Below, piece by piece: positions 816 through 36,627 of a DNA stretch of 56,283 nt; position 1 is the first letter of the stretch, and each line of letters starts with the position of its first letter. The translations under genes were made by a program, and so were the position numbers. Under the pieces are notes generated by a model. That model did not search any database. It saw only the letters and a list, made by a program, of their open reading frames with translations, and was not told where the DNA came from. Origin of the DNA: a virus (taxonomy: Duplodnaviria > Caudoviricetes); the IMG/VR virus record IMGVR_UViG_3300030380_002510, positions 1 through 56,283 of that record; one strand, given 5' to 3'.

Positions 816-2480
816 GTGAGCAAGATATTGGTTAAACAACAACCAACTCTTGATGACTACGGTATGTCTATGCAACAACCTGTAAATTCCGAATATGAAC
901 ACCAACAATTGCTTAATAGTATACTAAATGAAAATTATCAAAAACCAATCACTGTACCAAAGTTCCTTCCACAAACAAGACCTGTAAACCAAGAAGCATT
1001 AAATCAAGAAATAACAGATGCTATACAAGATTATTATTTTTCTCCTTTGTATGGCGGCCAACCTACGGACAAAAACATACCAACTACAGGTCGGGAACTT
1101 ATAGACGATTATTATAATACTATACATGGTAAAAATAATGTTTTAGATACTTCCGATTTAAAAAATTTAAGATATACAAGAGATGAGATAGAGGCTAAAA
1201 TCCGTGATAAAGTAGCACAAAGTGAAGAAGGTAAAAATCTTGAAGCAAGATACCCCAATGCTTTATATCATGAAATAAGAGAACATAACCCTCTTATGAG
1301 GATTCATGGTAGACAATCTACTTTACCCGAACATATACCTGCATATCATACAGAAAATTGGCAAAACCCCGATGGTTCAATACGAGAAGGAGCAGTACCA
1401 CCAATTACTGCACTTAAAAGATTAGATATTAAAGATATAGAAAGATTGATGGCTAATTCGGGGTTATTACCCTCCAACCAAAGAACAGGTGTAGATAATG
1501 AACAGTATGAATCGGGAGTTGTAAAAGATTTAATACAAGCAATAATACATCAAGACTCGGAACAACAAAATATTTCTACCGGCGAAAAAATATATGATAA
1601 GTTTAAACACCGAGAACCATTTTTTATGGCTAAACCCGGTGAATCTCGTACAAGTGCAGGTTTTTTTGTTTCACCTACTGATAGATTAAATCTACAAAGG
1701 GCAGTAAGCATGTCGGATGGTAATGAAGGGTATGTTGGTATAAGAGGTTTAAATACAGTAGACGACCATTTACAAATGCGACCTGTTGCCGGTCAAAAAG
1801 AAAAAACCGCAGAAGGATATGTTAGTTCTCGTATACCTGCTGAAAGATTAGTTCCAATTAGAGTACCTACTTCATCACTTCCTAAAGAATTACAACCTTC
1901 TTACCCCGAACAAACAGATAAAGATGGATTAAAGTTTTCAAATCAATATGCTTATCCTAATTTAAAAAGAAGAGATATGAGAAGAGAGGCTGAATTAAAA
2001 CTTAGTCCACATAGGGTAGGAGTCGTAAGTCCAAAACAAATTAAAAATAGAGATTTACAAAATATACTCATATCTAATTTAACTAAACCATTTATGCAAT
2101 TTTCAACTGATAAATATACAGGACTAGACCATGATGGTTTACCATTATTACCAAGTGGTGAATCTATGACACCGGAAGAAAAAATAAAATATCTTGAAAA
2201 TGCTAGTAATCTTGAAAAATTAACAAGATTACAAGGTGGAATTAAGCGTAGCCCCGAAAGAAAAACTGAATTACCTCCCGATTGGGGAAGTAAACAAGCA
2301 AGTCTTGATAAATTAACATCAAAAGATTTACACGCATTGGCTAATAAATTAAGAGATATTCGTAAACCTGTAGAATTTATGGATGCTCCGGGTACTGAAC
2401 ATAGAATGGCTTTAAACAGATACATAGATAAGTTAAGAAACCATGCTTATGTTAAAGAACAACAGGAGAGAGGACTATGA
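816..2480 (+). CDS. Hypothetical protein, possible ADP-ribosyltransferase-like fold
   Basis: 554-aa ORF, GTG start after AGGTG. Spaced motifs LYHE...GLLPS...FFVSP...YVGIR...EGYVSSRIPAERL resemble ART/Tpt1-like folds. N-terminus MSKILVK. Confidence 0.6.
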   Translation: MSKILVKQQPTLDDYGMSMQQPVNSEYEHQQLLNSILNENYQKPITVPKFLPQTRPVNQEALNQEITDAIQDYYFSPLYGGQPTDKNIPTTGRELIDDYYNTIHGKNNVLDTSDLKNLRYTRDEIEAKIRDKVAQSEEGKNLEARYPNALYHEIREHNPLMRIHGRQSTLPEHIPAYHTENWQNPDGSIREGAVPPITALKRLDIKDIERLMANSGLLPSNQRTGVDNEQYESGVVKDLIQAIIHQDSEQQNISTGEKIYDKFKHREPFFMAKPGESRTSAGFFVSPTDRLNLQRAVSMSDGNEGYVGIRGLNTVDDHLQMRPVAGQKEKTAEGYVSSRIPAERLVPIRVPTSSLPKELQPSYPEQTDKDGLKFSNQYAYPNLKRRDMRREAELKLSPHRVGVVSPKQIKNRDLQNILISNLTKPFMQFSTDKYTGLDHDGLPLLPSGESMTPEEKIKYLENASNLEKLTRLQGGIKRSPERKTELPPDWGSKQASLDKLTSKDLHALANKLRDIRKPVEFMDAPGTEHRMALNRYIDKLRNHAYVKEQQERGL

Positions 2481-3721
2481 TGCGAAAAGCCACTTTACCT
2501 ACTATGCGAGAATTAGGTTTAAGTTTTGATGATTTAGTTAATCAAGGATATAACTTAAGACATATTCCCGAAGAAAGAGAAAGTACTTTTTATCAACCAC
2601 AATTACTAAACAAACCTGCTAACAGACAATATGAAATAAATTATGCTTCAAAAAAAGATGACTATAAAAAAATACCCGGATTACATACAGAACCCCAACT
2701 TGACATGACCTTACCACGAAATAGTATAGATTCTTATTTTGTAAGTCCTCCTACAAGAAGGGGAATTTTATCGGCAGATGTGACATTTCCCGGTAAAAGT
2801 ACATTAATAGGAGTTAAAAATAGAAATGACGACTATGGTGTAGATTTTTGGAGAACTGATAGACAAGGTGCAGGTAGTAGAGGTGGTGAAGGTTTAATTT
2901 ATGGTGAATTACCAAAAGAAAATTTTGTAAAAATACCTACTAATATGCTACCTATGGATGCTCTTTTAGCGAATCGGCAGTATGGTATAAACCGTTTTTC
3001 AAATGGAATGCCTATAGATGAGGCTTTTGATGCTTTAGAATATACTTACCCCGAAGTCCATAGTATAGCATCGCAATTTCCTAATGTAAGTACTGAATCT
3101 ACATCTTGGCAAGAACCTGCACAATACAGGGGTACTAATCCAATACTTTTAGATGAAATAGATAATAAAGTAGCAAGCGAACCAATGAACATCGCTATGC
3201 GGTTGTTGAAAAATGAACCCGCAGATTATGTTGATACTTTTCGGCGTGTTGATAACAACATCGGTGCTGATGGTAGATACATGACAGATGAAGAATTAGC
3301 GGAGATTGATGCTCGTTATACAAAATTGCATGACGACGAAGACCACTTTGAAGAGTATTACAATTTATTGGAAGCAATTGAACTTGAGCAAATGAGAAGG
3401 AAAAATGAATCGTTTGATGGTATAGGCTATAACGAAGAAACAGGCTTTACTCGTAGCGAACCAATGGAAATTGCTATGCAATTACTCAAAGAGCGTGTAA
3501 GCCCCGAAGCGAAGCGACACAAGTTAGAGTATGATAAGAAGTATGAATCTTCACCGGAGAGAGTAAAGTACCGTGAAGAGTTGAACCGTGAGCGTAGGCG
3601 TAGACACATTATGGGGCAGGGTGGACCGGATATGAGCCACACCAAAGACCATACCATTGTACCGGAAAGCCCTCATACCAATCGGGCAAGACATTTTAAA
3701 GACAAAGGAACTCTCTTGTAA
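2477..3721 (+). CDS. Modular protein: ART-like paralog domain, acidic module, C-terminal HNH-like basic module
   Basis: ATGA overlap with the upstream gene. YFVSP...LIGVK...EGLIYGELPKENF parallels 816..2480. Two SEPMxIAMxLLK linkers. C-terminal DMSH...ESPHTNRAR. Confidence 0.6.
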   Translation: MMRKATLPTMRELGLSFDDLVNQGYNLRHIPEERESTFYQPQLLNKPANRQYEINYASKKDDYKKIPGLHTEPQLDMTLPRNSIDSYFVSPPTRRGILSADVTFPGKSTLIGVKNRNDDYGVDFWRTDRQGAGSRGGEGLIYGELPKENFVKIPTNMLPMDALLANRQYGINRFSNGMPIDEAFDALEYTYPEVHSIASQFPNVSTESTSWQEPAQYRGTNPILLDEIDNKVASEPMNIAMRLLKNEPADYVDTFRRVDNNIGADGRYMTDEELAEIDARYTKLHDDEDHFEEYYNLLEAIELEQMRRKNESFDGIGYNEETGFTRSEPMEIAMQLLKERVSPEAKRHKLEYDKKYESSPERVKYREELNRERRRRHIMGQGGPDMSHTKDHTIVPESPHTNRARHFKDKGTLL

Positions 3722-3890
3722 TAGTCAAATATTCAAAATGTTCACTATGTTAGTCAATAAAATGACTATTCACTTTACTCATTACTCTCTAATAATAATA
3801 TAATATATTTGTATAGTCAAATAAATGAACATGAACATGAACATTTTGAATAATGAATGGAAATCTTTATATTGACTAAAAAATTGACTA
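3721..3890. repeat. Repeat-rich AT-rich intergenic element (inverted and direct repeats)
   Basis: 15-bp perfect inverted repeat TATTCAAAATGTTCA (3730-3744) / TGAACATTTTGAATA (3838-3852). Direct repeat ATAGTCAAATA at 3721 and 3813. TAGTCAA x3 and TTGACTA x2. (ATGAAC)x3 at 3825-3842. A/T-only core 3791-3810. Confidence 0.85.
3865..3873 (+). promoter_or_regulatory. Putative archaeal TATA box for a leaderless transcript of the GTPase cluster
   Basis: CTTTATATT about 18-26 nt upstream of ATG 3891, which has no SD. Confidence 0.5.
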
Positions 3891-4445
3891 ATGGTGAGCA
3901 AGATGCAAGGTACAGGACAAGACTCGGATGCAGAAATAAGATTGATGGGGCTAATTTTAGCCCAATCAGCGTTAGTAGGATTAGCAATAGGTGTGTTTGA
4001 TGCAGACTTATGGTTAGAAAGTGATACGGCTATGTTAAATGGATTTACATACGCTATGGCCGCTTTCTTTGTACAAGGTATTGCTTATTATTTCTTTAAA
4101 ATGTTCTTTGAACAAAACATGCAAGAAAGAGTAAGAGCAACAGGAATGCAAAGGTCAAGAGATGCAAGATACAAACAAATGCAAATGAATTTTGACAACA
4201 GAAGAGTTGAGATGGAGATGCGAATGCAAGAAGCGCAACTTGAGCGTGAATTGCGTTGGATGGAAGCAAACCCCGGTAAGATGCCTCCGAGTTGGGGTGT
4301 ACCGGGTGGTTCACAATCTATAGTTGCACAATATGATTCCGGTCAATTCAATCCCGGTATACCAAGTCATGAAGTTGAAGTAGACCAACCAATTAATTTA
4401 GGTATTAAAGAAGAGGAAGAAAAAGAAGAAAAGAAGAAAAAGTGA
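3891..4445 (+). CDS. Two-TM membrane protein with coiled coil
   Basis: Hydrophobic segments LMGLILAQSALVGLAIGVF and GFTYAMAAFFVQGIAYYFF, then a charged helical stretch (RRVEMEMRMQEAQLERELRWME) and an E/K tail. Confidence 0.8.
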   Translation: MVSKMQGTGQDSDAEIRLMGLILAQSALVGLAIGVFDADLWLESDTAMLNGFTYAMAAFFVQGIAYYFFKMFFEQNMQERVRATGMQRSRDARYKQMQMNFDNRRVEMEMRMQEAQLERELRWMEANPGKMPPSWGVPGGSQSIVAQYDSGQFNPGIPSHEVEVDQPINLGIKEEEEKEEKKKK

Positions 4446-4454
4446 GGTGGTTAG

Positions 4455-4697
4455 TTGGGTCGTATTTTCAAAACCCCTACTGATGATTCAACAGAAGCAA
4501 CATTACGGGCTATGCACACTCAAAATATGTTAGATACATATTATGAAAAAGGTGTAGGTTGGTTAAGAACTATTCTTTTTGTATTAATCGCAGTGCTTGT
4601 AACAAGTGCTTTTGAATTAAAAACCGGAGATTCAATATGGGAAAATACAGTTGAATGGTTTTGGAATAAAATAGAAAGTTGGGTAAGTGGTGATTAA
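4455..4697 (+). CDS. Small single-TM membrane protein with Trp-rich amphipathic C-terminus
   Basis: TTG start after GAGGTGG. TM ILFVLIAVLVTSAF. Tail SIWENTVEWFWNKIESWVS. Confidence 0.75.
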   Translation: MGRIFKTPTDDSTEATLRAMHTQNMLDTYYEKGVGWLRTILFVLIAVLVTSAFELKTGDSIWENTVEWFWNKIESWVSGD

Positions 4698-5414
4698 ATG
4701 GTTGAACCTGCCGGTACTGCTTTAGTTGGTGTTGCAGTATGGGGGCAGAATCTATATAATTCTTGGCGACCAAGAAAAGTAGGTATTTATGGTGCGGCTA
4801 TGGTAGGTAAAACTACACTAGACAGATATATGACTACACCCGGTGAAATGGAAGAAATACCCGATGAAGAAAGAACAAGCCACATGAGATTACTTGGAAA
4901 ATATCTATTACCAAAACCTACTAGAAAGCGTATATCATGGAAAGGAGATAGAAGAGTAGTTTTTTCTGCTGACTTAGGTGGACAAGAAAGATTTTGGTCG
5001 TTATGGATAGATGATATGGTAGCAAGACAAGTTGAAGCAGTGGTATACATGTTTGATGAAAGAGCATTTAACGGTGGAGATGAAGCACTACAACAAATAG
5101 CCGGATTCAAATATTTAGTAGACTGTTTAATCAATAAACAATATAGGTATCGTACATTAAAAAGTAGATGGAAAGGTAAAAAATACGCACCAAGACTTGT
5201 TATGCTTATAGCAAATAAGGCTGACAGATTTTTTGATGAAAATGCCGCTATGTTATGGCAACAAAACAGAATAGGAGAGCATAAAGTGTTTGACCCATTT
5301 AGAGATGATTTAGTTAGATTACAAAAAGCCGGTATACCCACAAGAAGGTCTTTTATGGCTACAAGAATAGGTTGGAATGTTGAAACTACATTAATAGATT
5401 TATTATCAACATAG
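4698..5414 (+). CDS. Ras-superfamily (Arf/Sar1-like) small GTPase
   Basis: G1 GAAMVGKTT, candidate G2 Thr (ERT or KPT), G3 DLGGQERF, G4 ANKAD, G5-like ATRIGWNV. Hydrophobic N-terminal segment. SD GGTGA upstream. Confidence 0.92.
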   Translation: MVEPAGTALVGVAVWGQNLYNSWRPRKVGIYGAAMVGKTTLDRYMTTPGEMEEIPDEERTSHMRLLGKYLLPKPTRKRISWKGDRRVVFSADLGGQERFWSLWIDDMVARQVEAVVYMFDERAFNGGDEALQQIAGFKYLVDCLINKQYRYRTLKSRWKGKKYAPRLVMLIANKADRFFDENAAMLWQQNRIGEHKVFDPFRDDLVRLQKAGIPTRRSFMATRIGWNVETTLIDLLST

Positions 5415-5422
5415 GTGATTAT

Positions 5423-5593
5423 ATGAAAAAAGAAACAAAAATTATAGCAGTAAATAAAAATACAAAATGTGTAAGAACAGTAATTCCTAATGCGATGGCT
5501 GAATTATTAAATATTAAAGCCGGAGATACAATTAATTGGGAATTAAAAACTAAAGATGGAGTATTTCATCTTGAAGTAAGAAAGGGGGCATGA
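5423..5593 (+). CDS. AbrB/SpoVT/MazE-type swapped-hairpin DNA-binding protein (56 aa)
   Basis: Below the track length cut-off. Hand-translated MKKETKIIAVNKNTKCVRTVIPNAMAELLNIKAGDTINWELKTKDGVFHLEVRKGA. The IP...LNIKAGD.I.W pattern is typical of AbrB domains. SD AGGTGA. Confidence 0.8.
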   Translation: MKKETKIIAVNKNTKCVRTVIPNAMAELLNIKAGDTINWELKTKDGVFHLEVRKGA

Positions 5594-5594
5594 C

Positions 5595-6533
5595 ATGTAT
5601 ACAGGTAATCAACCAAGTTTAGGTCAAGTAAACCAAGCGCATTTACTTGCTTTAAGTCAACAAGGAAATGACACTTTAACTCATAGAGCGTTAATAGAAC
5701 AAGCAACTGCACAAGCGGCTATGCAAGAAGCATCAAAGAAAACTGATTTACAAGTTCCTAAAGTAAACTTCTATCCAAGTCGTCATCCTAATCCAATAAA
5801 AGCAAGAAGAAAAGATATTAAACAGGCTTACAAATTACTTACACCTACTAAAAGAAGTATTTTAAATCCATTTAGATTGTTTTTTGGAAGAAAGTATCGC
5901 TACAATAAACAAAGTCATGTATGTGTAGTAGATGGTTGCGATTGTGCAAATTTAATTCAATATGATAATTTGTATGCTAAAATTACTGATGAAGATACAG
6001 GAGAATCTTTGTGGGATTTGTATTGGAAAAATCCGGTCACAGGAGAACCGGAAGCATTTGTCGCTCGTGAAAAAGTAACAAGTGGCCGTAAAATGCGTGG
6101 TACATACTGCCCCGAACACATGCACCTATACCATTTACTTTGTAAGTGGGAAGCAGAAGAAGATAAACTAAGTGAAGCAAATCCTAAAAGACTTAGAGAT
6201 AGAGTTAAAAAAGGAGTATCAATTGTCACAGTTCCTATCACTGCAATAAAGAAAAACGACCCTACACCGGAAATGTTGAAAAAATACGAGCCATTTTTTG
6301 CTGAATTAGAAAAAGATGCAAGAAAAACTAAAGGAATTAACATTCAGTATTATACTAATCCTATGACTAATCAAAATGATATTACTATTGTAAGTTTTGA
6401 TTTAAGAATATTTCAGCATGAGTTGGCTATGTTTAATCAACCTACACCTGCTTTTCAAGCCATGTTAAATCAACAAGTAGAAGAAGTAGTTAATCAAAAC
6501 ACAAATATGGTAGATACCCTTCCGAGTGAGTGA
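5595..6533 (+). CDS. Hypothetical protein with putative split Zn site
   Basis: 312 aa. CVVDGCDC and YCPEH motifs. Basic/aromatic patch ILNPFRLFFGRKYRY. Confidence 0.7.
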   Translation: MYTGNQPSLGQVNQAHLLALSQQGNDTLTHRALIEQATAQAAMQEASKKTDLQVPKVNFYPSRHPNPIKARRKDIKQAYKLLTPTKRSILNPFRLFFGRKYRYNKQSHVCVVDGCDCANLIQYDNLYAKITDEDTGESLWDLYWKNPVTGEPEAFVAREKVTSGRKMRGTYCPEHMHLYHLLCKWEAEEDKLSEANPKRLRDRVKKGVSIVTVPITAIKKNDPTPEMLKKYEPFFAELEKDARKTKGINIQYYTNPMTNQNDITIVSFDLRIFQHELAMFNQPTPAFQAMLNQQVEEVVNQNTNMVDTLPSE

Positions 6534-7162
6534 TAGAGATGTTAAGATTGAATGGAAATAACCAAAATACAGGTACATTAAACTTAGGTGTACCATCTCA
6601 ACAAGGACAAATGCCGGTGCAAAATGCTAATCCGTGGGGGCAACAACAACAATCTAATTCATTCGTGGCGGGTTTATTCGGTGGACAACAACAAGCCAAT
6701 CAATATACACAACAACCTATTCAACCACCAAGTGAAATAGAAATTCAAATGGAATTATTAAAACAACAAGCAATTATTGAAAGATATGTTGCTAGTAGTC
6801 AAATGGGAGTGCTAATTGAAATGATGAGTAGTGTTGTGACACTAAGTGTATTAGAAATATTAAGAGGTGCTACATTTGTTATAAATGAAGACGATGGTAC
6901 ATTAAAATTAGATACAACTACTTTACCTGCTAATTTACAAACTATGAGTGTAGAAAATATAGAAAGTCAATTTACTAATTTACAAGCATCAGCACAACAA
7001 GTAGTAAATCAAAGTGAAATGACTCAACATCAATTAGCCGCACTAGCCCAACAGTCTATGATGGGAGGGGCTATAGCGGCATTACAAAGTGAAGGAATGA
7101 TGGAAAAAGTTGGAGGCGGAGTAGGAAGTTTCGCTCGCTCAATAATAACAGGAGGAAGATAA
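6530..7162 (+). CDS. Gln-rich hypothetical protein
   Basis: 210 aa, GTGA overlap with the previous gene. Q/P-rich N-terminus, helical middle, Gly-rich amphipathic C-terminus. Confidence 0.75.
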   Translation: MIEMLRLNGNNQNTGTLNLGVPSQQGQMPVQNANPWGQQQQSNSFVAGLFGGQQQANQYTQQPIQPPSEIEIQMELLKQQAIIERYVASSQMGVLIEMMSSVVTLSVLEILRGATFVINEDDGTLKLDTTTLPANLQTMSVENIESQFTNLQASAQQVVNQSEMTQHQLAALAQQSMMGGAIAALQSEGMMEKVGGGVGSFARSIITGGR

Positions 7163-7163
7163 T

Positions 7164-7415
7164 ATGCTAGATAAAGATTATACAACATACATACCACAAT
7201 CTTTTGCCGCATCTACATTAGATGTACTTAATCCGAATAGAAGTGTAATTATTGATATGATTATGGTACAAATTATTTCTATGATTGTAGTTATGTGTAT
7301 GATTTTAGTTTTCAAAGGCGGCAGTATGCCTTCTTCAACAATATCATATTTCTTGGTTGGACTGTTTGCTAGTGTCCTTATGCTTAGTGGTGTCTATTCT
7401 CGTATTACTCGGTGA
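7164..7415 (+). CDS. Small two-TM membrane protein (holin-like topology)
   Basis: 83 aa. IIDMIMVQIISMIVVMCMILVF and YFLVGLFASVLMLSGVY, short basic C-terminus. Confidence 0.75.
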   Translation: MLDKDYTTYIPQSFAASTLDVLNPNRSVIIDMIMVQIISMIVVMCMILVFKGGSMPSSTISYFLVGLFASVLMLSGVYSRITR

Positions 7416-7679
7416 AGGCCATTTACCTATAGGACATGTTGAGTTTAACAAATTAATTTTAGTTTTAATAAAACAACCACATAAATCACATCTCTTACCA
7501 CCGTAAGGACATAATTCACATGCCTGTTTTCTTAAATCGTATAACATAGGTGGACACAAATCACCTTTTACTGTATCTTTTACTGCTTGAGTAAGACTCT
7601 TGAGAGTGTACATATTAAGAGGTACACCTGCAACTCTTTTAGCCTCCCACATATAACTTTCCAAGTTATTTTTAGTCAT
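7344..7679 (-). CDS. Small Cys-rich Zn-binding protein
   Basis: Start moved to ATG 7679 (MTKNNLES) to avoid overlap with the gene at 7714. Motif CELC...RCDLCGCFIKTK...CPIGKW, a pattern common in small viral proteins. Confidence 0.75.
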   Translation of the reverse strand: MTKNNLESYMWEAKRVAGVPLNMYTLKSLTQAVKDTVKGDLCPPMLYDLRKQACELCPYGGKRCDLCGCFIKTKINLLNSTCPIGKWPSPSNTRIDTTKHKDTSKQSNQEI

Positions 7680-7713
7680 AAGTATTTTGTAATGGGTACG
7701 CCTAAGCCCGTAT

Positions 7714-8394
7714 ATGCAGGGGGCGGAGCGTGTAGTGAAACGGTCCTGTAAACTGTGTACACATGAAGATAGAGATGAGTTAGAACAACAACTTCTCAAC
7801 GGTCATATTTCTCCAAAAGAATTAGACAAAACAATGAGTTGGCGAGCCAACACTACTGATAGACATTTCCGTAATCATATGGGAGAATACCATATGGCGG
7901 CTAACCCTTCATGTCCTGTATGCGCTAGTCCTAAAAGAGCCGAATATGAGAATGAATATTTTCAAGGTAGCGCAGATACAGAACTAATTGCTGATGAGGT
8001 AGGTTGTGCAGAAAGAACAGTATACAACCACATGAAACATCATTTCCAACCTTTAGTGCAAAAAACTGCGGCCTATGAAGTAGCATTAGCCGCAGGTCAA
8101 GAAATTCAAGTACTCCGTTCAAATGCAGAAAAACTTAATCATAAACTAAGTGAATTGTTAGATGAAGGTACAGTACATGAAGATGGATTTGTCCGTGATG
8201 CGGTGATACTACACAAAGAAGTAAGAGAAACAGTAAAAGATTTACTTCGTTTCCAAGACCAATGGGGGGCTAAAACAGATAATCAACAAGTCAATCAAAC
8301 AATCAATGTATTACAAATTGAACTTAGTAAAGAAAGCCCCGAAACTTGGACTAGAATTAAAAAACAGTTGGCTGAAAATATGGGGGTAGAATAA
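7714..8394 (+). CDS. Probable terminase small subunit (tandem Zn-HTH domains plus coiled coil)
   Basis: Two CxxC-HTH-HxxxH units (CKLC...RHFRNH; CPVC...NHMKHH), a helical oligomerisation region and C-terminal QVNQTINVLQI. First gene of the run leading to TerL. Confidence 0.55.
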   Translation: MQGAERVVKRSCKLCTHEDRDELEQQLLNGHISPKELDKTMSWRANTTDRHFRNHMGEYHMAANPSCPVCASPKRAEYENEYFQGSADTELIADEVGCAERTVYNHMKHHFQPLVQKTAAYEVALAAGQEIQVLRSNAEKLNHKLSELLDEGTVHEDGFVRDAVILHKEVRETVKDLLRFQDQWGAKTDNQQVNQTINVLQIELSKESPETWTRIKKQLAENMGVE

Positions 8395-9701
8395 TGCCAA
8401 TGATGGGTCGTGGTTCGGACACAAGAATGTACTCGCCAAGAAGCGAGTCATCTCACATGTATGGTTCGGCCAATGAAGACGGTGGTAAATACAGTCCTAC
8501 ATCTGCCGAAGACGCAGACAAGCGTAGAGAAGAAAAACAACTCAAAGAAGAAGAAAGAAAATTAAGACTAAAAGATATTAAACATATCAAAATAAAACCA
8601 TCACAGGGATTAAACAGTGGTCCATCATTACCTAGAGAAGAAGGATTAGATGATGGTAATAAGCGTGATGACGAGCGTGAAATTTCACTTCAAGGTGGAC
8701 CGGCAGGTAGTCGTGGACATTTACTTGATATGGCTACAGGTGCAAAAACAGGCACAGGTTCAGCGATGGGTACGGGTAATTCCGCAGTTAGAACAGGCGA
8801 ACCAATGGAAGATGCTTGGTCTACATTGTTGAAGCGTGATACTCCAAAGACAATACAGGCTCGCCGTCGCCGTGAAGCAAGGCAACAATTTAGACCATCT
8901 ACAGGGCAATTCAAAAAACCTCCCGGTGGACAATCGGGCGGTGCAGGTGCTACAATGAAACGGTTTAAAGCAAGAATGCGTGGTATCAAAAGCGGTAAAA
9001 GAACAGGTTTGATGAAACCTCACCTGTCTGTTGAAATGAGCCACCGTGGTATTGCTACTAAACAACCCATGAGTAAAGACCCACAAAAGTACCGTCAATA
9101 CATGGGGCAACAAGAAGCACAAAAAATTCTTGGTGGAGTAAGAAACACATTTTCACCACACGCTAGACACAGTGCTAGAAGTTTTACCGCCGGACCTACA
9201 GGTGGAGGTAGACTTACAGGACTACTACCCGGTCAATCGGGGCAAATGAGGCAACCATCTCTTAGAAGATTACGCAGACCTCGTATGCCTAGAATTAGAA
9301 GCGTAATGCCCCCTCCACCACCTATGACTCCACAAATAGCACCACCTATGAGTAGTGTACCGAGTATGCCTTCTCCTTCTTCATCAATTATGATGAGCGA
9401 AGAAAGAACAGAAAGTGATATACTCAAAAGAAATCGTTATGCGAGAAGAACTGAAATGTTAGAGTTGATGCGTAGATTAATAGATTTACAAAAGAAAAGA
9501 AACAAATTAATGAAGTATGTTCAAGGGGGAGGTTCAAGATTTGAAGACGGGCATGTTCCAAGCCACCCTGCCGGTGTACAACAAAATGAAGATGAAGATG
9601 AGAAAAACGATGGACCAACACAGAATTTAGAAACAAATTCAAGTCGTTTAGGTCTTGACCCTGCGGGGCATCTATCCGGTAAGAGGGGGCATTTCGGTTG
9701 A
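8394..9701 (+). CDS. Low-complexity basic protein (G/R/P/M-rich), candidate internal head protein
   Basis: 435 aa, mostly disordered-looking. Contains TGEPMEDAWSTLLKR, ILKR and LMKY. Confidence 0.7.
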   Translation: MPMMGRGSDTRMYSPRSESSHMYGSANEDGGKYSPTSAEDADKRREEKQLKEEERKLRLKDIKHIKIKPSQGLNSGPSLPREEGLDDGNKRDDEREISLQGGPAGSRGHLLDMATGAKTGTGSAMGTGNSAVRTGEPMEDAWSTLLKRDTPKTIQARRRREARQQFRPSTGQFKKPPGGQSGGAGATMKRFKARMRGIKSGKRTGLMKPHLSVEMSHRGIATKQPMSKDPQKYRQYMGQQEAQKILGGVRNTFSPHARHSARSFTAGPTGGGRLTGLLPGQSGQMRQPSLRRLRRPRMPRIRSVMPPPPPMTPQIAPPMSSVPSMPSPSSSIMMSEERTESDILKRNRYARRTEMLELMRRLIDLQKKRNKLMKYVQGGGSRFEDGHVPSHPAGVQQNEDEDEKNDGPTQNLETNSSRLGLDPAGHLSGKRGHFG

Positions 9702-12807: not shown

Positions 12808-14295
12808 ATGAGCGAGAATATGAAAGAGTTTATCCTTGATATGGATAGGAAGATGGCTGAAAAGTCATTTAAGTTCTTTTTTACAGAAATACTTGGTTTT
12901 CATTACAGTCATCACCATAAAATGTGGGATGAAGGATTAAAGGGAAACAGATACTATTGTGTTAAAGCGAGCCGTGACCACGGTAAATCTACTTTGTTTA
13001 TGTCGTATGCTTTATGGATAGCCGCATTTAATCCCGGTACTCACATCATGATATTTTCACATTCATTAGAACAGACACTTGAACACATGAGATTTATCCG
13101 TAATAATATAGAAAGTGCCGATATTCTTAGAGGTCTAAAACCCGAACAAGGTAGACCGTGGGCTAAGTCTTACTTTGAGTTCACCAACGGTAGCCGTATA
13201 ATGGCTAAGTCTGTTGGTGGTGCTACTCGTGGTTTCCACCCCGATGTAGTAGTATGCGATGACATTTTGTGGGGTACTACGGGTGGAGAACTTCAAAGAG
13301 CCGCAGATTGGTTCTATGGTGTATTACTTCCGGTACTTCACCACACTGCACGATTAATGATGGTTGGTACACCGTTTAGTTATAATGACTTATATGCAGA
13401 ACTAGAAGAAAAAGAAACATTCCAAGTAGAAACTTATCCCGCTATCAATGGAGAAGGTATAGCCCTTTGGCCGGAAAGATGGAATCTTGAGGCTCTTGAA
13501 CAAAGACGATTATCAATGCCCGCTATACAATTTAGCCGTGAGTATCTTTGTGAACCTATTCACGATGTAGCGAGTATGTTCCCCGCTTCAATTCTTGAGG
13601 CGGCTCGTGATAAAGAGTTAGTGCTTCTTGATAGAGCAGATACCGAATATGATGAAGAAGGAAATCCGGCAGGTGTATTTGGACAACACTTTATCGGGTG
13701 GGACACCGCTATTGCATCGGATAAAAACGCTGACTTCACTGCTATGTTAGTATTAAGAACACCACCGGGTGATAATATCAAGGAAATAGTAGGTATCGTA
13801 CACGAGAAAGGGCTTGGCGGTGCGGCACAGAAAAAACAAATTTTACTGTTAAATAACAGATTTCAACCGGATTTAATAGAACTTGAAGGTAATAACTTTC
13901 AGCGTATGTTCGCCGCAGAACTTCAAGATATGAGAGGGGATATTCCTATTCGTACATTTATGACAACACGCCAAAGAAAAGAGAGTATGTTTATGTCGCT
14001 ACTCATGGCGTTTGAGCAAGGACAGATAAAAACTCCATACGGTGATGAGCGAAGTCGTGAATTTACACACAAGTTAGAATCCGAGTTAAACAGATTTGGT
14101 ATGCAAAAGAACGGCAAACTAGAATCTGTAGGTACTCATGATGACTTGGCTATGGCTTTGGCTTTGGCTAATTGGGGTACAAAAGAGTTCAAAGGTTCAG
14201 TGGTGCTTCTTGACGATATACTACCGGGCTTTGATGAATTTATTAGAGGGAAACCTCACAGAAATTATGGAAAAAATGATTGGGTGATACCGTGA
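12808..14295 (+). CDS. terL: Terminase large subunit
   Basis: Walker A ASRDHGKST, Walker B VVVCDDI, motif III VGTP, RNase H-like nuclease GWDTA...IELEGN...HDDLAMALALA. Confidence 0.97.
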   Translation: MSENMKEFILDMDRKMAEKSFKFFFTEILGFHYSHHHKMWDEGLKGNRYYCVKASRDHGKSTLFMSYALWIAAFNPGTHIMIFSHSLEQTLEHMRFIRNNIESADILRGLKPEQGRPWAKSYFEFTNGSRIMAKSVGGATRGFHPDVVVCDDILWGTTGGELQRAADWFYGVLLPVLHHTARLMMVGTPFSYNDLYAELEEKETFQVETYPAINGEGIALWPERWNLEALEQRRLSMPAIQFSREYLCEPIHDVASMFPASILEAARDKELVLLDRADTEYDEEGNPAGVFGQHFIGWDTAIASDKNADFTAMLVLRTPPGDNIKEIVGIVHEKGLGGAAQKKQILLLNNRFQPDLIELEGNNFQRMFAAELQDMRGDIPIRTFMTTRQRKESMFMSLLMAFEQGQIKTPYGDERSREFTHKLESELNRFGMQKNGKLESVGTHDDLAMALALANWGTKEFKGSVVLLDDILPGFDEFIRGKPHRNYGKNDWVIP

Positions 14296-15389: not shown

Positions 15390-16700
15390 TTGGTGGTCAA
15401 TATGTGGGGTAGTGCGTTGCTAGGCGATGAGTATGACCTAGCCATTTACCCTGCTGATAATTTAACTAAAAGTGTGTTGAGTAATCTTTCTCAACACCCC
15501 GATTTTGTTGTTCATAATGCACCAATAGAAAAGTCATCAAGTTTGTTTTCTAATGATGATATTAAGTCTTATAGTTTTGCTTCTAACGGAGATGGGTGGT
15601 TAGAAAGCACATACGGTAAAGATGCTAATTCAATAATTCGTATGTGTAGAAAAATGCGAAGAATAGATAAAAATAATCGTGAAAGTATTGATTTAATTAT
15701 AGATGATATTCGTACAATTAAGGCGATGGAAGTAGAGGCTACTATCAATAATTTATCGTGGAGTGATGGATTAGAAGATGTAATAAAAAATATAGGTCTT
15801 AATGATAGAAGCCTCAAAGCACTTCGCAAGTTTGGTGAATCCCGTTCATCATCTTTACAAAAAGCGTGTCAATTATATCTTAAGTCTATGACAGTATTAA
15901 ATTTATTAAATGATAAATTAGATTGGGGTATAGACGACCAAAAAGAATGGGCTAATGCTTTACAATTGAAAAAAGATGCTCGTAAAATGTGGTCTAGTAC
16001 TTTACATCAAATAGATAAATTATCTAAAACAGATAAATTAACACTTGATTTTGTTTCAAAACAATTAACTGAATCCGGTCCATTAAGTAGTCGTGAGTTA
16101 GTTCGTAGAGGGGTTGGGATGCTTCATAAATCTACTACGCCAAGTAAAGTTAGTAGTTTAATTAAAATGTATGGCGAAGAAGTAGATATTTACAAAAGTA
16201 GTAGCCGTGGCAATTTTGTAAAATTAGATACTCACGGTTTAATCATAAAAGATATATGGGCTTATGCGGCAGGTTTTCTTGATGCTGACGGAAGTATATT
16301 CATAACAGAAAGAGGCGAGCCGAGAGCGACTTTTATCGCTACAGGTGATAGAGGCCGTATGCAGTGTGAAGAACTACACAAAGCATTAGGTTGTGGTCGT
16401 TTAGTTCTCAATCAAAGAATACACAAAAATAGCGTAAGAAGCCAACATAGACTCATATTTTCATCAAAAGATGATTTAAGACAATTATTAAAAGGTATTT
16501 TACCCCATCTAAAAATGAAATCGCTACAAGCAAAAGCGGTTTTATCTTTTGTAGATGAAAAAGATAGAATGAGAAAAGACGAGTTATATCGTTTAGTCAC
16601 ATTTAACAATTGGAAAGATGATAAAAAGAAAGCCGATAGTTTCTTGAGTAAATGGGGCGTGGATGCAGATACAATAGGTAAGTATGCGGAGAGTTTGTAA
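15390..16700 (+). CDS. LAGLIDADG endonuclease-domain protein with long N-terminal extension
   Basis: WAYAAGFLDADGSIFI motif, followed by LGCGRL and ILPHLKMK..QA typical of single-motif LAGLIDADG domains. Start may be ATG 15402. Confidence 0.85.
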   Translation: MVVNMWGSALLGDEYDLAIYPADNLTKSVLSNLSQHPDFVVHNAPIEKSSSLFSNDDIKSYSFASNGDGWLESTYGKDANSIIRMCRKMRRIDKNNRESIDLIIDDIRTIKAMEVEATINNLSWSDGLEDVIKNIGLNDRSLKALRKFGESRSSSLQKACQLYLKSMTVLNLLNDKLDWGIDDQKEWANALQLKKDARKMWSSTLHQIDKLSKTDKLTLDFVSKQLTESGPLSSRELVRRGVGMLHKSTTPSKVSSLIKMYGEEVDIYKSSSRGNFVKLDTHGLIIKDIWAYAAGFLDADGSIFITERGEPRATFIATGDRGRMQCEELHKALGCGRLVLNQRIHKNSVRSQHRLIFSSKDDLRQLLKGILPHLKMKSLQAKAVLSFVDEKDRMRKDELYRLVTFNNWKDDKKKADSFLSKWGVDADTIGKYAESL

Positions 16701-18451
16701 TGGCTGATGATGAAAGTAGAATTAGTAGGTTTTTATCAACCTTAAGTAAACCGTTTAAGCGTAAGTCATCACCAACTCCAACTATGCCACTTTGGACAAG
16801 TGGTATACAAGAACCTGTTATGGCACAGGGAATTACTATCCCTGCTTTGTACGCAGTAAGTACAGAATGTTTAATTCTTAGAACTGTATTATCTAAATTA
16901 AGACAAGAAATGTTTAGACGAGGTTATTATTGGGAGAAGCAATTTCATAAGAAGTGTGTACAATGTGATGAGGAATTTCAACATAATGTAGAGTCTTGTG
17001 AAACATGTGGTGGTGAAGTTAGAGGACCGGATAATGATGAATTAGTTTATGCTAAGTGGTTATTGAAACAAGAAAACAGTATGGAGCAACAGTTTTTACA
17101 TATATTGCATGAACTTGAAAATGACCTAAATATAGTAGATGATGCTTTCTTATTATTTGTAAAAGAATACTATATAGACCCCGAAACCAAAGAAGTAGCA
17201 TTTTATCGTGTAAAAGAAATGATTAGAGGCGACCCAATATTCATGAGAATAGTTGCTGATAAAAGAGGTGTAAGAGGTGGCCGATACAAAACTTGTTTAA
17301 TTCACCGGGACCAAGTTAAAACACATGCCGAAGACGACAAGTGTGAAGTATGCGGTAGTGATTTACACGATGTACATTATGTAAATATGGCGGGTAGTGG
17401 TAAAACACAATACTTTGTTGAGGGTGAAGTTCTCCATGTAAGTAAGTACAATCCATCTAAATTGTATGGTCGCTCTCCTGTAAATACTATGTGGAGGCAA
17501 GCCATGACTCTAACTGCTATGGATAACTACATGTACACTGCATATCAAAAGCGTAGAATGCCTAAAGGTATTATATCTGTGACAACCGATAATCTTGAAT
17601 CTATGAAATCATTTTGGAAATCAGTAGATGAAAAAATGGAGCGTGACCCGCACTATGTACCTAAAGTTGGTATTGAATCTAGCACAGGTAGAGGTGGGGT
17701 TAATTGGATTAAATTTATGGACACACTAGAAGAAATGCAGTATATTGCAGTTCGTGATGAGATTCGTAATCGTATAGCCGCATATTTTGGCGTATCAAGT
17801 ATTTTTATGGTAGATAACGGTAAATCGGGTGGACTCAACAATGAAGGTCTACAAATTCTTGTGACAAATCGTGCAGTAGAGTTTGGACAAAAAATCTATA
17901 CAGATGTACTATTTCCTAAAATTCTAAAACAAATGGGAGTGTTTGATTGGAAATTAACTCTTTATCCGAATGAAGAAGAAGATGAAATAACAAGACTACG
18001 CCGTGATGAACAAGAGTTGAATGTAGCACAAAGAATGGCTCAATTAGGATTTGTACCGGAATTAATTAGTGGTGATACAAGTAGCGATATTAAATTTGTA
18101 TATCGTAAACCCGAACCTCAAGCACAACAAGCACCACCACCCGGAGGCGCACCACCAATGATGCCACCAAGAGGTATGCCACCGGGTATGCCTATGGGTG
18201 GTATGCCTCAAGGTATGCCGATGGGAGGATTACCACCGGGTATGCCGATGGGTAGTATGCCGATGCCACCTCCACAACCGGGCGGTGAAGGTATGGGAAT
18301 ACGCAATCGTGGACCTGCCGCACCGCAAAGAAGAACATCGCCGGGAAGTGGTGCGCCTGTAACAAGTGTTCAACAAAGAGGACCAACATCATCATTAGGA
18401 CAACAAAATGTAAATGCTCTTCAAAATGCTAGAAGATTTAGGGGTGCTTAA
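16700..18451 (+). CDS. Portal protein
   Basis: Lies between TerL and the protease. Portal-like motifs DLNIVDDAFL, LYGRSPV, MPKGII, IAAYFGVS. Two Cys-rich inserts and a P/M/G-rich tail. Confidence 0.9.
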   Translation: MADDESRISRFLSTLSKPFKRKSSPTPTMPLWTSGIQEPVMAQGITIPALYAVSTECLILRTVLSKLRQEMFRRGYYWEKQFHKKCVQCDEEFQHNVESCETCGGEVRGPDNDELVYAKWLLKQENSMEQQFLHILHELENDLNIVDDAFLLFVKEYYIDPETKEVAFYRVKEMIRGDPIFMRIVADKRGVRGGRYKTCLIHRDQVKTHAEDDKCEVCGSDLHDVHYVNMAGSGKTQYFVEGEVLHVSKYNPSKLYGRSPVNTMWRQAMTLTAMDNYMYTAYQKRRMPKGIISVTTDNLESMKSFWKSVDEKMERDPHYVPKVGIESSTGRGGVNWIKFMDTLEEMQYIAVRDEIRNRIAAYFGVSSIFMVDNGKSGGLNNEGLQILVTNRAVEFGQKIYTDVLFPKILKQMGVFDWKLTLYPNEEEDEITRLRRDEQELNVAQRMAQLGFVPELISGDTSSDIKFVYRKPEPQAQQAPPPGGAPPMMPPRGMPPGMPMGGMPQGMPMGGLPPGMPMGSMPMPPPQPGGEGMGIRNRGPAAPQRRTSPGSGAPVTSVQQRGPTSSLGQQNVNALQNARRFRGA

Positions 18452-20044: not shown

Positions 20045-23000
20045 ATGATAGATGAATTTAACATTTGTAAAAATGACTTTCTAATATCATTATACGATGG
20101 TTTAGATTTATCTCGTAATGCGGCTGAATATGTAATGGCTTGGGAGTCATTAGAAAAAGCCCCGCTAGATAATATTTCTTTAAGTCTTAAAGATACTGCT
20201 GAATTAATACTAAAGAATGAAAGTAATTTCGTAAGAGGTGAAAATAAAATATTTGATTTACCTAAAAAAGAAGGACCGGGTTATCTTCTTGCATCTAAAA
20301 CAACTTTTGGAGAACCCACTAATCATGTATGGGCTGACGGATTAGCAATAGATGAAGGTAGAAAGTATGGTATGTACCCTAAATACATAGCAAAACCCAC
20401 ATCTTCATACAAAGACCATCATTTTCCTTATCATGAGTTTAATCACCCACTTAGACAAATAAATAGTCATAGTGGATTACCTAACATGTTTGAATTACTT
20501 AGAGCGTTAGGTCCGGGTGGTTATGGAAAAGATGAAAGAGATATGGAGCGAGCATGGTTTAAAGAAATGACCGAGGCTAATAGTCCACTAATTACAGGAT
20601 ATAAGGCAGGTAAAAAGTCTATACCGATATTAGGCGACATAAACACATTCGGTACAATTGGTAATCACCAATACGATTTGTATGAAAGAGATTTTAGAAG
20701 ATGGCAAAAAGAAAACCCATTAGAATACGGTTTGACAGAAAATGAATTAAGGGATATGCACTTTAACGATAAAGTCAAAGAATGGTCTTCACCTATTGAT
20801 GGGTTAAGTCATGATGGATTTATGTTTGGGCTTGAATGGTTTTCACCCGAAGAAAGAGAAGGTTTGGAATCACAAATAAGTAAAGGTATAGATGACAAAA
20901 CTACACTTACATTACCTAATGGACAAAAAATCCCATCAGCAAGAATAGCATATAACAACTTAATGAGAAGAACACCGGAAATGAATTTTATGATTAGGTC
21001 TAACGGTCATTTTGGAAGAAACTCTCACTATAGACAACAATCAAATGAAGAAGATTATAGTCAAGGTGAAAACAGATTTATTCAATCAGCAGTGGCAGAT
21101 ACAATGCACACTTATAATTCATATTTAGATGAACCTGTAGCAAAATATATCTTAGATGAAATAAACGATAAGTATGTTGAAGAAGGTAAAAAACCATTTG
21201 AAAGATTACCTGCATTAAACTTACACAAAGAAAAATACAAAGATGAGTACGGGTTAAAAGACTTGAGAGCAGGTGCTAGAAAAGAAAGAATGTCTATGGA
21301 AGATGTATTATTTTTAGCAGGTTTTGACCCCGAAACTAAACAACTAATTGGAAATCACCCTATACACGGTAAAATGGAAGGACCAATTATAGGTTTAGAT
21401 ATTTTAAGTGCTTTAGAAAATGAGGCAAAAAGCAATAGTACTTTACAACAAAAAGCCAAAGATATGTTAAATCATCGTGCTTTTTTTACTTCTCCACATG
21501 GACCTCACCCCGATGAAACCAAACCTAAATATTGGCGTATTGACGATGATGGTTTTACCTATGGACCAAGTAAATTCTATGAAAGAATGTACTCTAACAT
21601 ACCGGGTATGAATCTATCACCTGCTACTTGGATGGAATTTAATCATTCAATGTCGCCGGATAAAGACTCATCTTATTTATTTGAAACAGACCCTACCGGA
21701 AGACAATTTTTCAAACCTCATTCTAATAACAAAATATTAGGTATGCACTTTGGTCCTAATGAAACAAAGGAATTAGGTTATTTATCACCGGAAACTAATA
21801 GATTTACATACTCAAATTTACCTAATCCGATGGTAAATATATTTTCACCATTTGGTACAAGTAGAAGCACTAACTTAACTGATAAAACTAATTATACAGA
21901 ACATAAATCTGCAATAAATCCTATATATGAATATTTTATGAGAAATGCTAGTTCTCAAGATAAAAAAGATTTAGGCACTGCAAATAAACACATGGCTCTC
22001 CATAAAGTGCATAATCCTACTTTACTAAATACTCCCGAAGCATATTATGGTTCTAATCCTACAGATACTCGTTTACATGAAAAAGCAGTTAAATCACATA
22101 TTCTTAACACATTCTTAGGTAGGAGAGAACACCCTTTTACACCACCTAAAAAAGCAGTTGCACAGTTGAAAGATTTGTTAAATGGTGATTTAGCAATAAG
22201 TGGTGGGTTAGATTTACAGGAGTTCAAAGATTACATAAATTGGGATTCTAAACCTATTACATATAGTAATGTAAAAAATATTATGGAAATGGGAGATTAT
22301 TCGGCAGTTCGCTTAGTAAACGCCGTTAGTGATATATTAGGTACAAAAAGAGCAGATAAAATTAACGAGTTCATAGGTAAATTAGACGGTGATAAAAATA
22401 ATGAAGAACATAAGAAATTACATGATTACTATATGGAAAATCATGACTTTCAACCATTTGATAAAATTAATATTAATGAAGCAACATCGGGAATACGAGA
22501 TATTGTGAATAAAGTACATCAGCAAAAAATGAAGCAAAGTAAATCTAAGAAAATACTTACTAATGAACATGATGCTATTAATGCTATTCTAAGTTTTGGA
22601 GGTAATCAAAAGTCTACTGAACAAGAAAAAAGATTTAGAGAAACTATAGATTCAATTAATCAAATGTTGTTAAATCCTAATTTATCTCAAGCAGATGTAA
22701 TGGGTCTAAGAGATGACATGAAAGAAGCAGTTAAAGGACTTAATGCAGTTCAATCAAAAAGTAAACCCGATAACTTTTGGAAAATAGGGGCAAATCAAAA
22801 ACTACAGGCTCTAAAAGGTCATCACGATACAATTGTAGACTATGCTAAAAATACCATCATGCCCTTAGTGCTTGAACAACAACCCGATGCTTTTGACCCC
22901 AACAATCCTGTACAGTTTATACACAATGCACAAAAAATGTTATCCGATACTCAAAAACATATACTAAGCACTAACAATCATAACCTAACCACTACTAACT

Positions 23001-36114: not shown

Positions 36115-36627
36115 ATGATGAAGAAGTCGCTTATCAAATTCCGAAGACTTGGACCAATAGTATATGCCCGTTGGGTATGTGAAACCAATGGAGTAGAGTT
36201 TGATGATAAGATGCTTGAACTTATGACTAGACATGAAATAGAATCTTATGTTCAAGATAAGTTAGACAATCCACCTGTAGAAACTACAGAAGAAAAAATA
36301 AATCCTCTTGTACAAGAAGAGGTAATTACCCCATTCCCTACTGATGTTCAGCAGTATGACTCATTAAAGGTCGCTGAACTAAAGGAACTATGCAAAGAGA
36401 GAAGCCTCCCTGTGTATGGTACTAAAGCAGAACTCGTTTTGAGATTAAGACAAAACGATGAAGGGATAACAACCGAAACAGGCGAAACTGACGGCCTCGC
36501 AGATGCGACCCCCGATGTAGAGCCGGAAGCCCCTACCGTAGAGGTAGCCGCTACCGAAGGAAGTGAATTAGATGAACAAACAGAAGAAGTTAGTGAACAA
36601 CAAGAGCCTATTATTGAAGAAGAATGA
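36115..36627 (+). CDS. SAP-domain protein
   Basis: YDSLKVAELKELCKERSLPVYGTKAELVLRL is a canonical SAP motif. Acidic flanks. Confidence 0.85.
   Translation: MMKKSLIKFRRLGPIVYARWVCETNGVEFDDKMLELMTRHEIESYVQDKLDNPPVETTEEKINPLVQEEVITPFPTDVQQYDSLKVAELKELCKERSLPVYGTKAELVLRLRQNDEGITTETGETDGLADATPDVEPEAPTVEVAATEGSELDEQTEEVSEQQEPIIEEE

Follow-up and report, generated by a model that had tools for sequence, protein, structure and literature searches.

A divergent small GTPase encoded together with membrane proteins in a gene block kept in five viral lineages

Small GTPases that act on membranes have been described in eukaryotes (Arf/Sar1) and in archaea. The archaeal ArvA carries an N-terminal helix and drives the formation of extracellular vesicles in Haloferax together with two operon partners, the SepF-like ArvB and the Zn-ribbon protein ArvC, according to the available text of PMC10927574. 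A different case is that of the Arf-type GTPases in an integrated mobile-like region of Asgard archaea, as given in the available text of PMC11529989. Full-text literature searches found no report of such an enzyme from magroviruses or other tailed viruses of prokaryotes, and the word GTPase does not occur in the main texts of the magrovirus papers searched. The stretch of DNA analyzed here, referred to as the window, is a viral contig of 56,283 bases (IMG/VR record IMGVR_UViG_3300030380_002510). On its plus strand seven genes (g1 to g7) are packed at positions 3891 to 7415, the third of which encodes a small GTPase. A preliminary description had taken this block for a self-contained membrane machine switched by GTP and knew of no such system characterized in a head-tailed virus. 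As far as the literature search reached the module is indeed unreported, and it relates to the membrane systems that are controlled by GTPase switches.

Conservation of the gene block in five viral lineages

The seven open reading frames (ORFs) follow each other at spacings of 9, 0, 8, 1, -4 and 1 bases. The first, g1 (3891-4445), encodes a membrane protein of 184 aa, and g2 (4455-4697) a small protein of 80 aa with one transmembrane (TM) segment. The stop codon of g2 abuts the start of g3 (4698-5414), which encodes the GTPase of 238 aa. This gene is followed by g4 (5423-5593) for a small AbrB/MazE-like DNA-binding protein of 56 aa, g5 (5595-6533) for a protein of 312 aa with a conserved Cys/His site, g6 (6530-7162) for a Gln-rich protein of 210 aa, and g7 (7164-7415) for a small protein of 83 aa with two TM segments. 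Pairwise comparison with five relatives gave ratios of nonsynonymous to synonymous substitutions (dN/dS) of 0.06 to 0.30 for g1, g2, g3, g5, g6 and g7 and of 0.21 to 0.72 for g4, all of them rough because dS exceeded 1 and was saturated. For g3 the ratio was 0.06 to 0.10, and this gene was the best conserved of the region. Judged by these ratios, all seven are genuine coding genes under purifying selection. The coordinates and strand of the seven tightly packed genes in the preliminary description were confirmed, and its descriptions of their products (TM proteins, GTPase, AbrB, Zn site and Gln-rich protein) agreed with the sequence features and family matches.

Eighty IMG/VR loci of the window lineage, in which the GTPase was 70 to 96% identical to that of the window, were searched for the genes with tblastn and, at the level of called ORFs, with blastp. 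Six of the genes (g1, g2, g3, g5, g6 and g7) were each present in all 80 loci. For g4 the count was 56 by tblastn and 67 by blastp. The downstream genes g9 and g10 were likewise found in 80/80 loci by tblastn (g10 in 78/80 by blastp), so synteny within the window lineage alone proves little.

Four further lineages encode GTPases that are 28 to 41% identical to that of the window. The P0126 lineage (13 loci, 38 to 41% identity) has the order g1-g2-g3-g5-g6-g7-x-g9 without AbrB. Its g2, g3, g5 and g6 were present in 13/13 loci, with a weak match of the g2 hidden Markov model (HMM), and g1 in 12, the missing one being at a cut end. The 11 metagenome loci of the P0129 lineage (35% identity) start with g1 and g2, continue with an extra gene and then have g3, g5, g6 and g7. 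There g5 lies directly 3' of g3 in 9 of the 11 loci, the other two being cut before g3, and the HMM match of g2 was again weak. By HMM g1, g5 and g6 were detected in both the P0126 and the P0129 lineage. The extra gene between g2 and the GTPase encodes a protein of 248 to 260 aa of no known family (L221, 5229-5999; L226, 5253-5999; L230, 5217-5999). In the P0127 lineage (4 loci, 30 to 36% identity) g1, g3 and g5 were detected by HMM in 4/4 loci. One of these loci (L091) encodes a TM protein of 72 aa before the GTPase and a Gln-rich protein of 246 aa after g5.

The most distant lineage, clade B (P0144), was represented by 80 loci kept out of 140, with GTPases 28 to 32% identical to that of the window, and g3 was the only gene found there by HMM search. 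The neighbors of this GTPase, compared by position, were constant. At position -2 a TM protein of 129 to 165 aa was encoded in all 77 loci long enough to include this position, and at position -1 a protein of 53 to 77 aa in 79 loci, which was hydrophobic at a threshold of 1.5 in 69. The proteins at positions +1 and +2 have about 226 and 234 aa. Profile comparison with hhalign matched position +1 to g5 (81.5%, E 1.1e-5) and position +2 to g6 (87.7%, E 3.4e-6), while all 78 other pairings of the eight clade B neighbor positions with ten window profiles remained below 10%. The protein at position -1 and g2 have by eye a common N-terminal motif, D-[DE]-S-T...L-x-x-x-H.

The core thus consists of five genes, g1, g2, g3, g5 and g6, which are kept in five viral lineages. 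The gene g5 always follows directly after the GTPase, or after AbrB in the window. AbrB (g4) was not detected in the other four lineages and is an accessory gene specific to the window lineage. The gene g7 is present in three of the five lineages: it was found in the P0126 and P0129 lineages and not in clade B or the P0127 lineage. The genomic position of the block changes. In clade B it lies directly 3' of the prohead protease gene, the capsid gene and two small genes, while in the window it heads the arm, 5' of g9, g10 and the terminase gene. Since the order is kept while flanks and position change, there is good evidence that the block is a functional unit, and it is probably one unit with a membrane-associated GTPase. 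The preliminary description had named the co-occurrence of the GTPase with the membrane genes as one of the points on which its proposal would stand or fall, and they occur together in 80/80 relatives and in the four other lineages. The content of its self-contained unit of seven genes is, however, reduced to the five-gene core.

The GTPase and the other proteins of the block

The GTPase g3 has the motifs GAAMVGKT (G1), DLGGQ (G3) and NKAD (G4). When 26 members representing all lineages were aligned, G32, G37, K38, D92, G95, N173 and K174 proved invariant and D176 was present in at least 90%. The Pfam scores of g3 itself were low (Roc, E 0.0054; Arf, E 0.3 and 11 bits against a gathering cut-off of 22.3 bits). 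Across the 26 members Arf was matched in 15 (E<=1, best E 4.2e-9), Roc and MMR_HSR1 in 15 each and SR-beta in 9. The protein already carried the label 'GTPase SAR1 family protein' of the Joint Genome Institute.

The AlphaFold2 model of g3 (predicted local distance difference test, pLDDT, 75.9) has the fold of a small G domain with a helix at residues 4 to 23 and two long inserts relative to Ras. Foldseek matched the model to Rab27B (E 1.2e-7), followed by Rac, Ras and other Rab proteins. With VIA-align the highest Z scores were obtained with Arl8B (13.6), Arl3 (13.2) and Arf1 on membrane tubules (12.8). Rag-type proteins reached 12.2 to 12.8, the highest of these values belonging to a Lokiarchaeal RagA-like protein, while an Asgard Arf reached 12.6 and Rab and Ras proteins about 10.7 to 11.7. 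When the model was re-aligned with 1000 chains, Z was at least 5 in all of them, with a top value of 13.6. In each of the 26 members 29 to 45 residues stand ahead of the P-loop and include a hydrophobic 18-mer (mean Eisenberg hydrophobicity 0.38 to 0.73).

An exhaustive search of 1.84 billion representative sequences with the GTPase family profile (A1) returned 84 proteins at E<=0.001, many of them fragments, and no cellular counterpart of the family was detectable among these representatives. All loci obtained with the representatives P0126, P0127, P0129 and P0144 were on IMG/VR viral or marine metagenome contigs. Searches of IMG/VR with P0129, P0157 and P0158 gave no match, and P0157 and P0158 gave no loci at all. 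No match was found either by tblastn of the GenBank phage collection, from which near records may be missing, with the window GTPase, P0144 and P0127, or by comparison of profile A1 with the PDB sequences at E<=0.1.

A quick maximum-likelihood tree was calculated from 65 sequences of at most 290 aa, namely 26 viral GTPases, 16 ArvA proteins and, from Asgard archaea, 3 Arf proteins and 20 other small GTPases. The viral GTPases formed one clade, with a support of 96 in the Shimodaira-Hasegawa-like approximate likelihood ratio test (SH-aLRT); ArvA (98) and Arf (99) formed clades of their own, and the order between the groups was not resolved. Profile-profile comparison of the viral GTPase gave scores of 65 with ArvA (75 columns), 84 with Asgard Arf (169 columns) and 100 with the mixed Asgard set (171 columns), so that no family was singled out. 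An affiliation with Arf/Sar1, to which the preliminary description had pointed as a parallel, is made suggestive by the structural and Pfam matches, but the tree places the viral proteins in a clade of their own. As judged from its motifs and its predicted model, g3 is a real, very divergent GTPase of the Ras superfamily with Arf-like traits, and it belongs to a family of its own.

Of the two hydrophobic 19-mers of the membrane protein g1, one is strong (Kyte-Doolittle 2.16) and the other weaker (1.37); the weaker one reached at least 1.0 in 67 of 69 orthologues. Past the hydrophobic segments follow a charged helix, with 11 Lys plus Arg and 9 Asp plus Glu among 51 residues, and a disordered acidic tail. 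In g2 a conserved N-terminal soluble part is followed by the TM segment and a Trp-rich amphipathic tail. The small protein g4 matched Pfam PF04014 (MazE/AbrB) with E 3.1e-5 and 24.3 bits against a cut-off of 24.7 bits, and the NCBIfam AbrB domain with E 0.0043.

In g5 the residues C110, C172 and H175 are invariant and C115 is present in at least 90% of the sequences. The protein had no match in Pfam, PHROGs, NCBIfam, PADLOC, the PDB profile search or ESM Atlas. In a fold search against 48,161 chains Z did not exceed 5.2, a value at noise level, and the best BFVD match was an unnamed protein (E 1.0e-3, template modeling score 0.25). The predicted complex of g5 with g3 (with GTP and Mg) had a median score of 0.19 against a mark of 0.32, and nothing was drawn from this result. 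The g6 protein is in part disordered and contains 14.8% Gln. A short hydrophobic N-terminal motif and a low-complexity first half rich in Gln, Asn, Gly and Met are followed by a conserved central domain, a Gln-rich helix and a Gly-rich tail. No family match was obtained for g6; its best match in the PDB profile search had E 0.31, and ESM Atlas gave none.

Genome setting, promoter-like element and flanking genes

The plus strand of the window carries the morphogenetic arm of a tailed virus, with genes for the large terminase (TerL; 12808-14295), the portal (16700-18451), an S78 prohead protease (25666-27075) and an SU10-type major capsid protein (27108-28292). The right arm of a complete relative (G001; 107,203 bases, completeness rating 100%) is collinear with the window. 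The left arm of G001 encodes an SNF2 helicase, a clamp-loader-like AAA protein, PolB and a PD-(D/E)XK nuclease. The nearest GenBank phage matches of this PolB were haloarchaeal tailed viruses, with 23 to 24% identity. In the clade B genomes PolB is split, and they also contain a TFIIB-like ORF (22 bits, slightly below the cut-off) and two ATP-dependent ligases, one of them within the structural module. A split PolB, a TFIIB-like gene and a second ligase in the structural module are magrovirus traits according to the available text of PMC5434244 and PMC10768690. The full signature is shown by the clade B genomes, while the window itself has TerL, portal, S78 protease, SU10-type capsid protein and a weak ligase domain. 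No match to MCM (PF00493) was found in five related genomes.

By these published traits the window plausibly belongs to a magrovirus-like, head-tailed virus from the sea whose genome measures about 105 kb, and the viral, magrovirus-like setting assumed in the preliminary description is likewise plausible from the structural genes and from the traits of G001 and clade B. Window DNA was present in marine metagenome runs of five named studies and in five entries without a study name; four entries, which belong to a single study, may be where this DNA came from. The hosts of this abundant marine group are probably archaea of the Poseidoniales. The search for genome contigs found just three short contigs (L172, L173 and L174), from metagenome-assembled genomes (MAGs) labeled Asgard archaeon, Maricaulis and Parvibaculum. 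They hold the complete module and are most likely mis-binned virus contigs, which calls for caution when hosts are derived from bins.

Some other ORFs of the structural arm were noted. The weak ATP-dependent DNA ligase domain (E 2.5e-4) is part of an ORF of 1851 aa (20045-25600, plus strand) between the portal and prohead protease genes, which recalls the magrovirus trait of a second ligase inside the structural module; its counterpart in G001 has 1834 aa. A protein of 170 aa (36115-36627, plus strand) contains a SAP DNA-binding domain (E 1.7e-12). A giant ORF (39697-56283, plus strand) is open at the end of the contig and encodes at least 5529 aa, and its G001 counterpart 5976 aa. Its sole Pfam match was a weak one to a concanavalin-like lectin (E 0.003), and it is possibly a giant tail or adhesin protein.

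The sequence GAAATCTTTATATTGACTaaaaaaTTGACTa-ATG stands directly 5' of g1. It contains a promoter-like element (3860-3889, plus strand) with a BRE-like GAAA, a TATA-like TTTATAT (3866-3872) and two TTGACT repeats (3872-3877 and 3884-3889). The element ends 1 base before the ATG of g1, the center of the TATA-like box is 22 bases before the ATG, and there is a single exact match within the window. A related element with two TTGACY repeats was present near the start of g1 in 30 of 78 loci, mostly those of closer relatives, and three occurrences were found in the remaining 874,748 bases of these loci. A scan of the window for sigma-70 promoters was at chance level (18 sites, 19.2 expected). As for the putative promoter that had been ascribed to the block, the recurring BRE/TATA-like element would fit an archaeal-type promoter with an operator. 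Binding of AbrB (g4) to the TTGACT repeats is speculation. The P0126 lineage has an ORF of 48 aa just 5' of g1 (L176, 7167-7313; L177, 7165-7311) that looks by eye like a ribbon-helix-helix protein. It sits where the window lineage has the promoter-like element, with AbrB further on; the small regulator seems to be exchangeable.

On the minus strand the convergent gene g8 (7344-7799) encodes a Cys-rich protein (Pfam DUF6171, E 0.0018; PHROG phrog_13558, E 1.2e-8) with a pairwise dN/dS of 0.33 to 0.66. An internal ATG at 7679 would abolish its overlap with g9. The preliminary description had let g8 close the block, but the gene was present in just 49/80 loci and is therefore not a conserved boundary; it is an accessory insert outside the module. 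In the loci without g8, g7 is directly followed by g9 on the plus strand, so the plus-strand unit is not closed at 7415.

The gene g9 (7714-8394, plus strand) encodes two CxxC pairs and a helix-turn-helix-like stretch; besides the 80/80 loci of the window lineage it also lies 3' of the module in the P0126 lineage. It had weak PHROG matches to DNA-binding proteins and small terminase, and is a candidate small terminase or late regulator. Its neighbor g10 (8394-9701, plus strand) encodes a basic low-complexity protein rich in Pro, Gly, Ser and Arg, of 385 to 770 aa among the relatives and without a family match. Just 5' of the module, the protein encoded at 2477-3721 (plus strand) matches phrog_6437 with its C-terminal 70 residues (E 4.3e-17). 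The matching ORFs in relatives span 72 to 1226 aa, and the gene looks hypervariable.

Proposed function and comparison with known systems

The block lies on the same strand and in the same arm as the genes for terminase, portal, protease and capsid protein, with the BRE/TATA-like element 5' of g1, which suggests a late, archaeal setting. Starting from its gene content, the motifs and fold of the GTPase, and the conservation and joint relocation of the block, we infer a membrane location, partner binding, timing and release function as follows. A BRE/TATA-type promoter of its own would drive transcription of the block together with the late, morphogenetic arm. On the cytoplasmic side of the host membrane the GTPase g3 would be anchored through its N-terminal helix, probably aided by the charged helix of g1 and the conserved cytoplasmic portion of g2. 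The GTPase would cycle between the GDP and the GTP state, with g5 and g6 as regulator and effector, and the GTP state would trigger the assembly or opening of the membrane proteins. The most likely output would be the release of virions by timed disruption of the membrane or another exit. The best explanation overall is, tentatively, a membrane-anchored GTP switch, with g1 and g2 as its membrane partners and g5 and g6 as soluble ones, that acts late at the cytoplasmic membrane of the host and most likely in virion release. The membrane remodeling, the lysis timing and the roles of the neighbors as GEF, GAP or coat that the preliminary description had put forward are likewise conjectural.

Virion release as the output is a possibility that we favor with some doubt. 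In tailed viruses, release is usually brought about by small membrane proteins that are made late. Release is further favored because the sole characterized archaeal small GTPase of such a build drives outward budding of the membrane (available text of PMC10927574), and because no egress system is known for the Magrovirales, none being described in the main text of PMC11706807.

Several observations weigh against this explanation. In many members of the g3 family the catalytic Gln of DxxGQ is replaced by Glu, Asp, His, Ala or other residues, and GTP hydrolysis may therefore be slow or depend on a partner. The N-terminal helix has a low hydrophobic moment (0.05 to 0.41 in the 26 members) and is less clearly amphipathic than that of Arf. 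The confidence of the g5 model is modest (pLDDT 67.8), and g1, g2 and g7 had no significant match to a Pfam, PHROG or NCBIfam family. The TM proteins of clade B reached only 0.2 to 0.4% with g1 and g2 in hhalign, so their likeness is one of architecture. A known holin family or a lytic enzyme was not found in or beside the block (2477-9701; Pfam, PHROG and NCBIfam). The position of the block differs between lineages, and 'late' is deduced from strand and neighbors only. The archaeal host is no more than probable, the sole genome matches being the short, evidently mis-binned contigs.

Other functions were considered for the same block. It could build or mark a membrane platform for virion assembly, DNA packaging or genome replication, to which the GTPase recruits viral proteins and in which g6 serves as a disordered scaffold. 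The conservation and membrane features fit this role as well as they fit a release switch. The block adjoins the capsid gene in clade B and packaging genes in the window, and a protein like g6, half low-complexity sequence of Gln, Asn, Gly and Met with a small conserved domain, would suit a scaffold. However, head assembly of tailed viruses is not known to depend on a membrane, and searches of Pfam and PHROG, and for g6 the PDB profile search, gave no likeness to scaffolding, portal-associated or replication proteins. Such a platform is considered unlikely. That the products are internal virion proteins or ejection proteins, which would be packed along with the DNA, pass into the host envelope upon infection and form or gate a channel for DNA entry, is improbable. 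Ejection proteins of tailed phages often have TM segments and are encoded among structural genes, and the clade B block does lie within the structural module. In the window lineage, however, the head genes are distant from the block, which has a promoter-like element to itself. To our knowledge there is no precedent for a nucleotide switch carried in a virion, and there was no PHROG similarity to known ejection proteins.

A membrane-acting device for host takeover, superinfection exclusion or counter-defense, separate from morphogenesis, would account for the membrane proteins, the small regulator (AbrB/MazE-like in the window, ribbon-helix-helix-like in the P0126 lineage) and the varying accessory genes around the block. 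Such systems are usually patchy and fast-evolving, whereas here the core is kept in five deep lineages with the GTPase as the best-conserved gene, and the module had no PADLOC defense match; we regard this function as quite improbable. It is now very unlikely that there is no functional unit and that the genes are adjacent merely through the collinearity of related genomes. The presence of the flanking g9 and g10 throughout the window lineage would agree with mere collinearity, but the five genes remain together, their order unchanged, in lineages that have other flanks and another position of the block, and their stop and start codons abut or overlap. In its broadest form the preferred explanation, a late GTP switch at the host membrane, would mean that magrovirus-type viruses carry an Arf-like GTPase machine of their own, with membrane receptors, a Zn-protein regulator and a disordered effector, which opens or reshapes the archaeal membrane for exit on a signal timed by GTP. 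This broad form is doubtful. If it is true, it would be the first egress or membrane-remodeling system controlled by a nucleotide switch in any virus of prokaryotes.

Among known systems, holin-based lysis cassettes of tailed phages resemble the block in combining small membrane proteins with late genes, and a role in timing is plausible. Unlike them, the block has no holin-family match and no endolysin nearby. We know of no lysis cassette that includes a GTPase, and the literature search also found none. GTPases of giant viruses, such as the mimivirus Rab (PDB 5xc5; structural match to g3, Z 10.7), are also virus-encoded members of the Ras superfamily. These are clear captures of host Rab genes by viruses of eukaryotes, whereas the g3 family is without a detectable cellular counterpart.

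The Arf/Arl/Sar1 proteins share with g3 the N-terminal helix, and Arl8B, Arl3, Arf1 and Asgard Arf were its best structural matches, above Rab and Ras. The DLGGQ..FWSLW motif of the window g3 resembles Arl8, and Arf is the best Pfam family across the members. However, g3 is below the Arf cut-off, the Gln is not conserved in its family, it has two long inserts, it is not nested among Asgard Arf in the tree, and Rag-type GTPases score equally well in structure.

ArvABC of the Euryarchaeota is built to a similar plan. Going by the available text of PMC10927574, it comprises, like the viral block, a small GTPase with an N-terminal membrane-seeking helix and two conserved soluble partners, one of them a Zn protein, and acts on the archaeal cytoplasmic membrane. 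The Pfam pattern of Arf and MMR_HSR1 is found on both ArvA and the viral GTPases. However, the two groups of GTPases form separate clades (SH-aLRT 96 and 98), and the viral profile aligns to ArvA over the N-terminal third only (hhalign 96%, 75 columns). No ArvA-like protein was among the 84 representatives found with profile A1. Comparison of g6 with ArvB and of g5 with ArvC and ArvB gave 0.1% each in hhalign, with the limited sensitivity of single ArvB and ArvC sequences, and PF09846 (ArvB) and PF09845 (ArvC) had no Pfam match at E<=1 in the block. The viral block moreover adds two integral membrane proteins that are virus-encoded. The module as a copy of ArvABC was therefore rejected, and the correspondence to the haloarchaeal vesicle system drawn in the preliminary description is reduced to a similar plan. 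In an Asgard-labeled MAG (G006), contig 93 has ArvA and ArvB adjacent (L188, 840-1809) and ArvC (OapC) about 4 kb 5' (L189, 1366-1731); this MAG had 39 matches to the Arf family.

If the proposed explanation is true, the viral GTPase family would have evolved in viruses independently of Arf and ArvA. The four protein families of unknown fold encoded by g1, g2, g5 and g6 gain a defined partner in g3, and the conserved virus-specific GTPase module is a concrete candidate for tests by heterologous expression. Beside eukaryotic Arf/Sar1 and archaeal ArvABC it would be a third, independent small-GTPase membrane system of the archaeal world, with a bearing on the origin of such switches.

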